A stretch of DNA of 42,828 nucleotides from an uncultured Pseudomonadota bacterium (GTDB taxonomy: Bacteria > BMS3Abin14), in contig CAYVSA010000010.1 in assembly GCA_964454175.1 (NCBI GenBank), positions 1-42,828 on the forward strand, written 5' to 3'. Position numbers: made by a program. The stretch's first letter is position 1, and the number at the start of each line of letters is the position of its first letter. Below are positions 1-3,000 of the stretch, piece after piece.

Positions 1-3000
1 AAGTTAAAGTGCTCTGACCCCAGCGGGGGGAGGGGAGGGACGCACTTCTCAAGGGGATGCATCGGATGGTATACTTATGCCTGTGAGTGCAGGTGCCATT
101 AAGATTCTCTTAAATCCCGGCCGGGTTGCTGTCGGGGTGTGGGTTCAGAAAGGGGGAAGTTATGGGTAGGAAGCTATTGGTATCTTTTCTTGCACTATTG
201 CTTGCGATCGCCGTCGCAGCAGTTGGTCTTGCTGAAAATGAAGTGTTTGAACCTGTGAAGGCACCCTCCCTCGGGCCGGAAGGTGCTCCTGTCACAATAT
301 ACGAGATCGCCGACTTCATGTGACCTTTCTGCAAGGAGGCCGGTCCGACCTTCAAGCGGATAAAAGAAGAGTACAAGGGAAAAGTCAGATTTGTTTTCGT
401 TCCCTACATGAGGTCCTATTCCGAAAATTCGCGGGACACCGCCCTGGCGGCCTTTGCAGCATGGGACCAGGGTAAATTCTGGGAAATGCACGATCTCATT
501 TTCGAGAAAGCGCCCGATATTGACAGGGGGGTACTCGTAGAACTTGCCAGTCAGCTCAGGCTCGATCTGAAAAAATTCACCGCAAGCCTTGATAATAAGG
601 AACACCTGGACGATCTCACCGAAAATCGAAAGCGAGTCAGGGATCTGGATATCTGGAGCACGCCGACGCTCATCATTAACGGCAGGATCCTGAAGGGTGA
701 GCAACCCTTTGAGAAATATAAATCCCTCATTGACGAAGCTCTCGGCTCTCACAGCAGCACCAACCCTGTATGGCGAGCTGTTTCTTCGGTCGCTAGACTT
801 ATTCGGCCGTCGTCGGCTTACGCGTCGGGAGGTGGCGCCTTCGGCGAGGGTAAAGTACCGCTCTTTATCAAGGTCCCGGTCCTGAAACGGGTTAACGACC
901 TCAAAGTGGGCATGAAGGCTCCCGATTTTGAGCTACCCAGCACTCTGGGCCGAAGCATCAGGCTCAGCAGTTACCTGGGCAGAAAGAACGTTCTGTTATC
1001 GTTCATGCCGGCTGCATTTACCCCTGTCTGAACCGGGCAGCTGGCCGCGTACGAAGAGTTACGAGATCGTTTCGCAGCCCTGAACACCCAGGTTCTGGGT
1101 GTATTTGTAAATAACATGCCCACTCTCATGGCCTGGACGCAGGGGATCAACCTGTCCTTTCCAGTTCTCAGTGATTTCTGGCCCCACGGACAGGTTGCTC
1201 TGCTCTACGATGTTCTGAGATCAGAGGGTATTGCCGAAAGAGCTATTTTCGTTATCGACAGGGAGGGCATTATCCGCTACATAGATATCCACGACATTAA
1301 CGAAGACCCCGGGATCAATGCTATTCTGAAAACCCTGGAGGATATAGAGGCCAGGTGACGCCCGGTGCCACCTTGCAAGGTACTGCCCAATACTGGTATA
1401 TTACGCGCCACTGGCAAGTAGATGATGTTGCTTGCAAAATGTGGCCTTGTTAAGAGACAATATCGGTGGTTATCCACACAGGCGCCTGGCGATTTTCCGC
1501 CGGTTGTTTGGTGTAAATGTGCAAGAGGTTCTAGAGTATTCCTGATGAATGGAGATTCTGCTGATGGCAGGTGATGAGAACAACGACAATAAATTCAGTG
1601 TTGAGGATCGCAGGACATCTACGGTTGGGACCGAGATCGAGAACGGGCTGGAGGACCAAGACAGCCAGATGGAGCCTGAAGCGGACTCCGGGCCTGACGT
1701 ATCGGAAGCAGGTTCGGCCAAATCGGGCAAGTTTCCACCCGTAGATTTTTCAACTTTTCTGTTCTCACTTTTCAGCTCGGCCCTGATCCAGCTTGGAGAG
1801 ATGGCCGATCCTATCACGGGAAAGCAGGAAAAGAGCCTCGAGTCGGCAAGCCAGACGATCCAGCTGTTCTCAATACTGGAGGAAAAAACCAAAGGTAACC
1901 TAACCGAAGAGGAGGAGAAGTTCCTGAAGAACGCTTCAGCAGAACTCAAGTGGAAATACCTCGATGCTGTAAAGGAGAAAGGATAGTTCCTGTTTTGAGG
2001 GTTCCCTTGGGCCGATTCCTTCTTTCTGTCGCATTCCTGTTTTCCCTTATCCAGCCTGCGCTTGCCGCGGAGGTGAGCGAGGTCACGGTGGATTTCCCTC
2101 TGTCCGAGATTCTCGATATCAAGCCAGCTGGTGCCAAGACGGCTGGTGATGCGATCGCCAGTCAACCGGTCGGTACCGCAAAGCATGCTTCGTGGGAAGA
2201 TGAGTGGTTTGCCTACAGGCAGAAATCCCTGAGGGGCAATAACAAGGGAGCGTCCGAGCATCTTGACAAGGTAAATGCCTACAGGATGAGCGCAGGGATA
2301 CCCAACCTTTTCATCCCTTCTGCCGCCCTCATGTACGAGTCGTCCCAGGCCAGGAGGCAGGGACGGTATGACGACGCCCTCAGACTCGTAAACTATGCAT
2401 CGCTGCTTTCACCCGATGATCCTGCTCCCCACTTTTACAGGGCCAGAACTTTATATAAGCAGAACAAGCTCAGGATCCTTTCTGCTATTGATGCTGTTTT
2501 CGAGGGATGGGTGACTTTTGCCAGGGACTTTCGATCTTCATTCCCGTGGATGGTAGGTTTTGCGGTCTGGATCCTCACCGGAATAATCATTGCCAGCATA
2601 GTATCCATTTTCATTTACACGATCAGAATTATACCCCGCATCTCGCACGATATATCTCATCTGGTCAGGCTCCCCCAGTGGGTGATCAACCTGAGTTTTC
2701 CGCTCCTCATGGCGGTACTGCTCTTTATCTGGCTGCCGTTCATATGGTGGGTTGTAGCTATTGCGTTCATACCATTTTTACACGCCACAGGCCGCGAACG
2801 CGTTGCTCTGTCTGCAGGGTTGATATTTTTGGTGTGCATTCCACTGCTGGTACACGTCATGGCACTCGGAAACAATTTCAACTCCGGATTTAAGGGGATC
2901 TTGCTTTATGACTCAGAGATGTCAGGAGAAGGGCCAGCCGTCATCCGTAAGCTCGAGACTCTGAGGACCCGTTATCCCCGAGACTCTGAAGTCCTGGTCG

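Follow-up and report, generated by a model that had tools for sequence, protein, structure and literature searches.

A predicted exported fusion of a DsbA-like domain and an AhpE-like peroxiredoxin with selenocysteine at both active sites

We analysed a 42,828-nucleotide stretch of DNA from an uncultured Pseudomonadota bacterium (the window; all coordinates are on its forward strand), in which positions 162 to 1358 hold, as judged from sequence, one genuine gene, whose predicted product is an exported antioxidant enzyme with selenocysteine (U) at both active sites. The product is probably a periplasmic relay peroxidase in which a DsbA-like domain and a peroxiredoxin (Prx) domain each carry a selenocysteine placed by SelB-dependent decoding, the function of the fusion protein being predicted from homology only. 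It is the selenium version of a DsbA-like-Prx fusion that is already in public databases, where it is unstudied.

The coding sequence comprises 398 codons and a terminal TGA stop (1356 to 1358). Translation of positions 162 to 1355 gives a single open frame of 398 residues once the two in-frame TGA codons are read as selenocysteine; under translation table 11 the same frame splits into pieces with ends at 323, 1031, and 1358. The genome-wide survey's note had described one gene for a 398-residue protein, and that description stands, each of the two TGAs lying inside a Pfam domain that runs across it. The predicted mature product is about 40 kDa. A Shine-Dalgarno sequence, AGGGGGA, can be read at positions 151 to 157, 4 nt ahead of the ATG, and a G-rich Shine-Dalgarno sequence precedes the ATG in all 11 genome orthologues (AAGGGGG-like; GGAGG in copy L027). 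Consensus scans also returned a promoter-like site at 46 to 75 (TTCTCA-18-TATACT, with TG ahead of the -10 element) and a terminator-like hairpin with a T-run at 1486 to 1513. Both count as weak evidence, because the scans gave 5 promoter-like sites per 2 kb against 1.6 expected and 1 terminator-like site against 2.2 expected.

Domains of the predicted protein

Residues 1 to 24 (162 to 233) form a predicted signal peptide of the Sec translocation type, read by eye, with a K/R n-region, a hydrophobic core, and a small-x-small site between AVGLA and ENE. The same layout is common to 11 of 11 orthologues, and the AlphaFold2 (AF2) model places a leader helix at residues 2 to 21. The proposal of an exported product in the survey's note is thus upheld as a prediction, and the protein is likely to be delivered to the periplasm.

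The DsbA-like thioredoxin-fold domain spans residues 35 to 192 (264 to 737), the extent of the match to Pfam Thioredoxin_4 (PF13462; 88 bits against a cut-off of 23); Pfam DSBA (PF01323) also matches over its cut-off at residues 46 to 190, with 55 bits. Its nearest solved sequences are BdbD (3eu3; E 4e-19) and the ScsC-type proteins 6nen and 4xvw. The first TGA (321 to 323) corresponds to U54, the first residue of a U-P-F-C motif that ends with C57 (codon 330 to 332) and stands directly ahead of a helix at residues 55 to 70 in the AF2 model, in which helices at 88 to 161 form an insertion between the strands of the thioredoxin fold. By alignment, T167-P168-T169 (660 to 668) occupies the predicted cis-Pro loop position, and T167 and P168 do not vary among the 22 sequences aligned.

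An AhpE-like 1-Cys(Sec) Prx domain follows at residues 248 to 388 (903 to 1325), matched by Pfam AhpC-TSA (PF00578; residues 249 to 374, 122 bits against a cut-off of 26) and by Pfam Redoxin (248 to 388). The nearest solved relative of residues 245 to 377 is Mycobacterium tuberculosis AhpE (1xvw/4x1u; E 7e-27), and a Foldseek comparison with AhpE gave TM scores of 0.89 to 0.93, an rmsd of 1.5, and 38% identity. Alignment with AhpE makes U290, encoded by the second TGA (1029 to 1031), the peroxidatic residue of the motif P283-x-x-x-T287-x-x-U290. The Arg of AhpE 'GIANRGTF' aligns with R360 (1239 to 1241), the catalytic Arg conserved in Prx active sites; P283, T287, U290, and R360 show no variation across 22 sequences. 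The Prx domain lacks a resolving Cys, since residues 228 to 398 have no Cys or selenocysteine besides U290; the redox set of the protein is U290, U54, and C57, with C57 the only other redox residue, as the note had it. Also in agreement with the note, no NCBIfam model scored over its cut-off: the best were Rcas_1661_fam_Se (98 bits against 190) and peroxi_PrxU (54.5 bits against 270), and on these scores the protein belongs to neither. Its leader has no lipobox Cys, a further point against the Rcas_1661 family of (seleno)lipoproteins.

Between the two domains lies a flexible linker, residues 197 to 242 (750 to 887), with low pLDDT (below 50 at 197 to 202 and at 212 to 242), which tolerates insertions of 12 to about 50 amino acids. 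An A-x-A followed by an F-G-x-G-K-V-P-L pattern, compared with exported Prx proteins, makes it resemble a decayed signal peptide plus the N-terminal extension of exported single-domain Prx relatives. The AF2 model shows two confident domains on a disordered tether, with a pTM of 0.48 and no confident inter-domain arrangement. A complex prediction for the two domains of Cys/Cys homologues, run without controls, scored 0.00 against a mark of 0.32 and speaks neither for nor against a contact.

Proposed peroxidase relay and its electron source

In the mechanism that we propose, a periplasmic DsbA-like domain would be tethered by its flexible linker of about 45 residues to the AhpE-type Prx domain. 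We infer each chemical step as well as the electron donor. The U290 selenolate would reduce H2O2 or an organic hydroperoxide and become a selenenic acid, which an exposed U54 selenolate would attack to give an inter-domain diselenide. C57 would then attack U54, freeing reduced U290 and leaving a U54-C57 selenenylsulfide, and an external periplasmic reductant would restore U54 and C57. The DsbA-like domain would here take the role of mycoredoxin-1 for AhpE, or of the glutaredoxin domain in Prx-Grx hybrids, and the net role would be to clear peroxide from the envelope of an anaerobic cell.

The survey's note had called the protein a self-contained selenoperoxidase, and this part of its reading fails: U290, U54, and C57 can carry one turnover and would end as the U54-C57 selenenylsulfide, and because this must be re-reduced externally the enzyme needs an outside donor. 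What supplies electrons to a periplasmic peroxidase where no DsbD/CcdA is found is a question that the gene raises. This genome, 98.5% complete, gave no match to DsbD_TM or DsbD_2 (PF02683, PF13386; DsbD/CcdA), and across the phylum PF02683 gave a match in 5 of 16 genomes and in 3 of the 12 that bear the fusion. No redox partner genes occur among the neighbours here or in five relatives, nor beside the Cys/Cys gene of a Sumerlaeota bacterium. A DsbA-fold protein with a C-P-F-C motif, NCgl2478 of Corynebacterium glutamicum, works as a reductase according to the available text of the report on it (PMC8280269).

An unlikely alternative is that the protein is a peroxide-driven thiol oxidase or redox relay, in which the Prx domain loads a selenenylsulfide on the DsbA-like domain, which in turn oxidises envelope thiols. 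Acting without DsbB through a transient U290-U54 diselenide, it might conceivably, though we doubt it, take over from DsbB or VKOR as the partner, in the way that Prx4 or GPx7/8 serves PDI in the endoplasmic reticulum (ER). In the ER systems (Prx4, GPx7, and GPx8 with PDI) a peroxidase hands oxidation to a CxxC thioredoxin-fold protein; these are eukaryotic, consist of separate proteins, serve disulfide formation, and bear only on this alternative. Were it true, the fusion would be a prokaryotic counterpart of ER Prx4/GPx7-PDI, in a phylum where none of the 16 genomes examined yielded DsbB and where VKOR and the fusion almost complement each other, VKOR occurring in 4 of 16: three of the four fusion-less genomes against one of the 12 that bear the fusion. 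Neither DsbB nor VKOR was found in the present genome, and since DsbD/CcdA was not found there either, electrons would be readily available from substrate thiols. Among solved structures BdbD is the closest to the DsbA-like domain, and it acts as an oxidase and not as a reductase.

Other observations count against a thiol oxidase. The complementarity with VKOR is only suggestive, because the VKOR that we examined is a 467-residue multi-pass membrane protein with no thioredoxin-like domain and because the genomes are kin, so that the pattern amounts to perhaps two or three independent events. By a crude method run without a positive control, the exported proteins of this genome include 53 with a single Cys and 30 with two, and the fraction with an even number of Cys is 0.47 among exported and 0.44 among cytoplasmic proteins; the lack of an even-Cys bias counts against a general role in oxidative folding. 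An anaerobe would also have no steady peroxide supply for housekeeping folding, and the oxidising power of a selenenylsulfide should be low.

Conservation and decoding of the two TGA codons

A full-length match with 60 to 75% identity and exactly two TGAs was found in 10 of 15 genomes of the same family, the number given in the survey's note, and both TGAs are kept in each of the 15 metagenome copies that extend over the second site. One further orthologue, in genome G007, runs off the end of its contig, again as described before, and has one TGA. Genome G011 holds only a deleted remnant with an internal deletion and a TAA, and among the 15 genomes searched G004, G006, and G015 gave no match to the fusion. 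The note's statement that the linker stays in frame in six genera was right as to a spread over genera and wrong as to the count, full-length copies occurring in eight of nine genera.

That both TGAs encode selenocysteine is well supported by the conserved codons, the alignment with Cys, the downstream hairpins, and the decoding machinery. The residues named in the note, U54 in a DsbA-like U-P-F-C motif and U290 as peroxidatic residue, were both recovered: in 32 of 32 Cys/Cys homologues examined the TGA at 321 aligns with the first Cys of the CxxC motif and U290 with the peroxidatic Cys, which is also its counterpart in AhpE. The genome has SelB (profile score over the cut-off), a tRNA-Sec (74 bits), and SelD (over the cut-off; selD itself contains a TGA), together with a C-terminal piece of selA, the last 40 or so residues, at a contig end adjoining selB. 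A paralogous DsbA-like selenoprotein with a U-P-Y-C motif is encoded elsewhere in the genome, on contig C8. In the fusion gene, SelB-dependent decoding would insert selenocysteine at the two UGAs, with a separate hairpin downstream of each directing it.

The SECIS-type hairpin after the first TGA (335 to 353) is clear. It starts 11 nt after the UGA and has an 8-bp stem, with compensatory changes in 2 of the 8 pairs, and a GUC loop containing G-U; in an alignment of 11 sequences, 29 of the first 35 columns after the TGA are invariant. Synonymous-site entropy falls to 0.25 at this hairpin, against 1.10 over the gene; nowhere else in the gene does synonymous variation drop further, and values as low occur in only 4 of 280 windows. 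The conserved hairpin reported earlier at this site is thereby substantiated. The stem after the second TGA (1043 to 1079) is non-canonical yet is supported by covariation: an outer stem pairs 1043 to 1049 with 1073 to 1079, and the inner helix depends on the lineage. RNAalifold did not recover this stem from the region and gave a weak, different consensus (-5.0 kcal/mol); the stem read from the sequences was therefore tested. Three of its pairs have changed on both sides, one more than previously noted, and 81% of cells are paired, a percentage reached by none of 500 shuffles; the covariation score was reached by two. Synonymous variation shows no significant dip at this second hairpin, where 68 of 276 windows have values as low. 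A search of positions 1 to 3000 against Rfam at E up to 1 gave no match and is uninformative for these hairpins.

It is highly improbable that the frame does not yield one protein, whether because the TGAs act as stops or a separate Prx starts in the linker, either of which would give two or three products, or because the gene is in decay. Such a reading could draw on the output of gene callers, which emit fragments between the two TGAs (P0008, P0015 to P0017, P0238) and C-terminally cut forms (P0010, P0206), and on two possible starts in this copy, V249 (GTG) and M251 (ATG). In 19 copies, however, there is no conserved in-frame linker start with a Shine-Dalgarno sequence, L149 having no linker start at all and L026 a single TTG, and on this ground we rejected internal initiation of a separate Prx. 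The pieces would have no active-site residue, and only the two conserved TGAs interrupt the frame in any full copy, whereas the truly decayed remnant of G011 differs in its internal deletion and TAA. The notion that TGA stands for a standard amino acid, Trp or Gly under code 4 or 25, can be set aside almost entirely: although a JGI protein (P0002) has W at both positions, having been called with TGA as Trp, both sites align with catalytic Cys and are followed by hairpins, tRNA-Sec, SelB, and SelD are all in the genome, and TGA terminates this gene and two orthologues (true stops among 11 genome copies, TGA in 3 and TAA or TAG in 8; TAA or TAG in 9 of 9 metagenome copies). For annotation, the lesson is that gene callers fragment such genes or apply the wrong code.

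Homologous forms and known systems

The closest counterparts are fusions with Cys at both sites, in place of the two selenocysteines here. Public data hold 31 or more cluster representatives with the Cys/Cys fusion, 369 to 421 residues long, with generic names such as 'redoxin domain-containing protein', examples being P0009 (Myxococcales), P0263 (Thermodesulfobacteriota), P0275 (Candidatus Lernaella), and L053 (Sumerlaeota). At 34 to 38% full-length identity they share the domain order, the leader, the linker, and the three redox residues; the CxxC and the peroxidatic Cys are both present in 32 of 32, and, read from Cys positions, most have no further Cys outside the N-terminal leader. In a tree, the Cys/Cys forms and all selenocysteine-bearing forms fall on opposite sides of a branch with 100/100 support. 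The survey's note had listed Cys/Cys, Cys/Sec, and between-TGA fragment forms in public data, and each class was found again. It had also placed the novelty in the fusion together with its two selenocysteines. The double-selenocysteine form is indeed new, and the architecture is not, because at least 31 Cys/Cys fusions were already public. A literature search found no characterisation of these fusions and no paper describing a DsbA-like-Prx fusion family.

Among characterised proteins, M. tuberculosis AhpE (1xvw/1xxu/4x1u) carries the same PxxxTxxC, Arg, and 'LSDFWPHG' motifs and likewise has no resolving Cys. Its reductant is mycoredoxin-1, a CxxC partner that reduces the sulfenic acid. AhpE is a cytoplasmic, stand-alone Cys enzyme served in trans via mycothiol, whereas the protein described here is a fusion with selenocysteine and is predicted to be exported. 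Prx-Grx hybrids, the type of Haemophilus influenzae PGdx, resemble it in that the Prx carries a CxxC recycling domain of its own in the same chain, and the AhpE-like Prx-Grx fusions P0031 and P0041 are 49 to 51% identical to the present Prx domain. These hybrids are cytoplasmic and have a C-terminal glutaredoxin and glutathione-type donors, in contrast to the N-terminal DsbA-like domain and envelope location predicted here. In Caulobacter, the ScsB-TlpA-PprX system reduces peroxide in the cell envelope, a periplasmic thiol peroxidase being recycled by a thioredoxin-fold protein, and the system includes the DsbA-like ScsC, as far as the available text of PMC3322552 describes it. In that description the components are separate Cys proteins that draw electrons from a DsbD-family transporter, whereas no such transporter was found here. 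PrxU of Eubacterium acidaminophilum and DsbA-like UxxC selenoproteins both appear in the available text of a 2026 review (PMC13188914); their selenocysteine positions (TxxU and UxxC) are as here, and as presented there each has one selenocysteine in a single domain, against two in two domains in the fusion.

The prokaryotic selenoproteome would gain a two-selenocysteine, two-domain enzyme, and notice is drawn to an exported DsbA-like-Prx fusion family. Cys/Cys, Cys/Sec, and Sec/Sec forms on one scaffold offer a natural series for the contribution of selenocysteine at the peroxidatic versus the resolving position, and the series also bears on whether a catalytic diselenide forms.

The genome contig scan used Cys-coding patterns, so that TGA forms lay outside its reach. 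Close relatives of the Prx domain are elsewhere fused to glutaredoxin, or to a DsbA-like domain in the reverse order, which makes the joining of this type of Prx to a CxxC partner a recurrent event. A search of protein representatives returned mostly proteins with multiple DsbA repeats, and 3 of the 150 matches listed (P0206, P0238, and P0248) were related to the fusion.

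The gene and its selenocysteine signals

The fusion gene, at window 162-1358 on the plus strand, forms a single frame of 398 codons once TGA is read as selenocysteine. On that strand TGA1 lies at 321-323 (U54, in the context D-F-M-U-P-F-C57), TGA2 at 1029-1031 (U290, P-A-A-F-T-P-V-U), and a third TGA at 1356-1358 is the true stop; translation with table 11 splits the frame into pieces ending at 323, 1031, and 1358. The plus-strand Shine-Dalgarno sequence AGGGGGA stands 4 nt upstream of the ATG, and residues 1 to 24, read by eye, form a putative Sec-type signal peptide with K/R, a hydrophobic core, and V-G-L-A|E. 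Each Pfam domain spans one TGA: the DsbA-like domain covers residues 35 to 192 (Thioredoxin_4, 88 bits; DSBA, 55 bits), and the peroxiredoxin domain covers residues 248 to 388 (AhpC-TSA, 122 bits; Redoxin, 83 bits), all above their cut-offs. The genome-wide survey's note had proposed one gene with two selenocysteines, and this frame bears it out; sequence evidence could hardly make the gene model or either selenocysteine more secure. As also noted there, no NCBIfam model exceeded its cut-off for the fusion, the top scores being 98 against 190 for Rcas_1661_fam_Se and 54.5 against 270 for peroxi_PrxU.

The conserved hairpin claimed to follow TGA1 was recovered as an 8-bp stem that begins 11 nt past the UGA and has a G-U-C loop. 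Across 11 sequences, 29 of the first 35 downstream columns are invariant, and two pairs of the stem are altered on both sides, U-A to C-G and G-C to A-U, the latter also changing two amino acids. Pairing holds in 97.7% of cells, against 25 to 62% when the partner is slid, and the hairpin is present in the single-sequence minimum-energy fold of 8 of the 11 copies. Synonymous-site entropy in 19 orthologues falls to 0.25 over codons 55 to 65 compared with 1.10 gene-wide, a level reached by only 4 of 280 windows. Around TGA2, RNAalifold's own consensus is weak. A stem read from the sequences (columns 15 to 21 with 45 to 51) is paired in 81% of cells and has three pairs changed on both sides, one more than the survey had counted; none of 500 shuffles matched its percentage paired, two of 500 reached its covariation score, and all slid versions scored lower, a shuffle control that is somewhat flattering because the stem was derived from the same sequences. 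The synonymous-site dip after TGA2 is not significant, with 68 of 276 windows equally low.

The source genome, G000, encodes SelB (364 bits) and tRNA-Sec (74 bits), and its SelD has an in-frame TGA itself (G000:C134:180-1109). Of SelA only the last ~40 residues are present, at a contig end, and the cut selA lies directly upstream of selB (G000:C66:7799-9894).

Conservation and the Cys and Sec forms of the fusion

We searched 41 related genomes for the fusion, 15 of them from the same family. Ten of these 15 carry it at full length, with 60 to 75% identity and exactly two TGAs, as the survey had counted, and the copy in G007 is interrupted by a contig end. No match was found in the same-family genomes G004, G006, and G015, and G011 retains no more than an internally deleted remnant that carries a TAA (L135 about 3075-3266, corresponding to G011:C27:55074-55265, minus strand; also L029). 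In this remnant the few residues preceding the active site are joined to the C-terminal 'LSDFWPHG...', the active site having been lost through a deletion between two LSD(F/Y) repeats. The remnant lies in the syntenic position, flanked by DUF1844 and mazG, which shows in situ loss of the fusion in genus g5. Twelve of the 16 genomes of the phylum examined here (the source genome and the 15 of its family) carry the gene. Wherever the 5' end is intact, in 11 genome copies, a G-rich Shine-Dalgarno sequence, an ATG, and a signal-peptide-like leader are present. The true stops vary among the 11 copies (TAA or TAG in eight, TGA in three), while the two internal TGAs are constant. A DNA pattern built around TGA1 retrieved 20 metagenome loci, and all 15 that extend to the second site have a TGA there; four stop earlier at a contig end and one, L142, is frame-shifted. 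This locus (contig VAPD01001133.1) is nearly identical to the G012 orthologue but loses the frame after about residue 104; it is a pseudogene or the product of misassembly.

A profile built from three Cys/Cys forms (cysteine at both the DsbA-like and the peroxidatic site) identified at least 31 fused cluster representatives of 369 to 421 amino acids among the 120 matches listed. They are named in databases as 'redoxin domain-containing protein' (Myxococcales, Thermodesulfobacteriota, and Candidatus Lernaella) or 'peroxiredoxin/protein-disulfide isomerase'. Both CxxC and P-x-x-[FW]-T-x-x-C are present in all 32 fused Cys forms examined, most of which have, by our own reading of the printed positions, no cysteine beyond these and the leader. 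Two Cys/Sec forms, P0010 and P0206, carry C-P-F-C and end with a stop where the peroxidatic residue would be. The JGI entry P0002 is a Sec/Sec orthologue translated in the wrong code, so that both TGAs appear as W, and further public entries are fragments starting or ending at the TGAs. An arbitrarily rooted tree of 51 rows contained 16 of the 19 Sec/Sec copies (L026, L148, and L154, close to retained rows, were omitted), the two Cys/Sec forms, and 33 Cys/Cys forms. One branch with 100/100 support places all Sec-bearing forms on one side, and the Cys/Sec pair falls inside or beside the Sec/Sec group. The fusion architecture is not unique to the source lineage, and the gene in the window is the Sec/Sec variant of an existing, apparently undescribed fusion family, which combines two known selenoprotein families and follows the known logic of joining a peroxiredoxin to a CxxC partner.

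No title or abstract that we found describes a DsbA-like/peroxiredoxin fusion, and an earlier listing elsewhere is possible. A 2026 review (PMC13188914) names peroxiredoxin (TxxU) and DsbA-like (UxxC) selenoproteins along with several fusions and double selenoproteins, with no DsbA/peroxiredoxin fusion in the examined passages of its Table 1 and text. The GOS study (PMC2398784) lists Prx-PP2C, UGSC/Unknown_1, Prx-like 2, and Prx-like 3 fusions, and its fusion section and Figure S1 legend contain none with DsbA, in agreement with the survey on both sources. None of the terms searched for occurs in the BSepDB paper (PMC13326102).

Domain structure and a proposed catalytic cycle

By sequence, the closest solved relative of the peroxiredoxin domain is the 1-Cys peroxiredoxin AhpE of M. 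tuberculosis (E 7e-27), which it also matches by fold (TM 0.89 to 0.93, rmsd 1.5 Å, 38% identity). P283, T287, U290, and R360 are unchanged across an alignment of 22 sequences, and the domain has no second cysteine. The closest solved relatives of the DsbA-like domain are B. subtilis BdbD and ScsC-type proteins; T-P-T is conserved at the cis-Pro loop position, and in the AlphaFold2 model helix 55-70 begins directly after U54. That model, from the 22-sequence alignment, resolves both domains with confidence and leaves the tether between them disordered (pLDDT <50 at 197-202 and 212-242); its inter-domain arrangement is not confident (pTM 0.48).

Strong homology suggests the function of the fusion. 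By analogy, U290 would probably reduce peroxide and become a selenenic acid, U54 would attack this to form an inter-domain diselenide, and C57 would resolve the diselenide, leaving a U54-C57 selenenylsulfide. The models are AhpE with a CxxC reductant and the Prx-Grx hybrids, which also occur among close relatives of the peroxiredoxin domain; the ScsB-TlpA-PprX envelope peroxide pathway (PMC3322552) and a C-P-F-C reductase of DsbA fold (PMC8280269) serve as comparison systems. Since this cycle would end at the selenenylsulfide, it describes a peroxidase that carries its own resolving or relay domain, and the survey's term 'self-contained' selenoperoxidase was not upheld. With regard to a final electron donor, the source genome, 98.5% complete, yielded no match to DsbD_TM, DsbD_2, DsbB, or VKOR. 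DsbD_TM occurs in 5 of the 16 genomes of the phylum, three of them among the 12 with the fusion.

Alternatively, the fusion might act as a peroxide-driven thiol oxidase in place of DsbB or VKOR. DsbB was found in none of the 16 genomes, and VKOR, found in four (G004, G008, G011, and G015), is present in three of the four fusion-less genomes but in only one of the 12 with the fusion, a distribution that would fit such a role. The genomes behind it are kin, however, and the VKOR-family protein of G004 (L133 1166-2569), a 467-amino-acid multi-pass membrane protein with C-T-L-C, lacks a thioredoxin-like domain. A crude even-cysteine test likewise did not point to general disulfide formation among exported proteins: in a set of 262 proteins predicted to be exported, 53 have a single cysteine and 30 have two, and the even-cysteine fraction is 0.47 for exported versus 0.44 for cytoplasmic proteins, by our own signal-peptide heuristic and without a positive control. 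We consider the oxidase role unlikely. Either that role or a catalytic diselenide, if shown, would make the fusion of greater interest.

Origin, neighbourhood, and related genes

The closest single-domain relatives of the peroxiredoxin part (45 to 56% identity) come from anaerobes and are exported 1-Cys peroxiredoxins, in which a signal peptide is followed by a Y/F-x-x-x-I-Y-x-P-G-x-L-K-P extension. The fusion linker (…A-x-A then F-G-x-G-K-V-P-L…) aligns with the signal-peptidase site and extension of these proteins, which suggests that a dsbA-like gene was joined to a downstream exported prx gene. The linker, said by the survey to stay in frame, does so through insertions of 12 amino acids (L138) to about 50 (P0016 and P0017). 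An internal start for a separate peroxiredoxin was also considered and rejected, as no in-frame start preceded by a Shine-Dalgarno sequence is conserved in the linker of 19 copies.

Downstream, at window 1549-11453, lie DUF1844, a TPR protein, DUF4388, phoH, 7TM-HD, ybeY, corC, and lnt, an order conserved at least partly in each of five relatives examined, with mazG upstream in relatives. No redox genes were among the neighbours in the source genome and these five, and the selenoprotein fusion gene appears to be monocistronic beside the DUF1844-lnt cluster.

A second, stand-alone DsbA-like selenoprotein with U-P-Y-C is encoded at G000:C8 about 38.8-39.3 kb (L156 about 3800-4310, plus strand); it has an extra N-terminal domain and 28% identity to the first domain of the fusion, and is found with one TGA in most relatives. 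With fusion residues 244 to 375 as the query, a stand-alone peroxiredoxin paralogue with one in-frame TGA was not found in the source genome; it occurs at 36 to 43% identity in seven relatives (G001, G002, G007, G009, G010, G012, and G013), for example at G002:C1:1016850-1017203, G009:C20:4315-4677, and G010:C1:1854914-1855273. Searches with the first domain are dominated by large, exported tandem DsbA-like proteins of three to six domains and up to 1196 amino acids (P0112-P0261, P0003-P0007, and P0289-P0304), many from Myxococcota where a source is named. AhpE-like peroxiredoxins occur in other fusions as well, in reverse order with a DsbA-like domain and no leader (P0020), with glutaredoxin (P0031 and P0041), and with nitroreductase (P0074).
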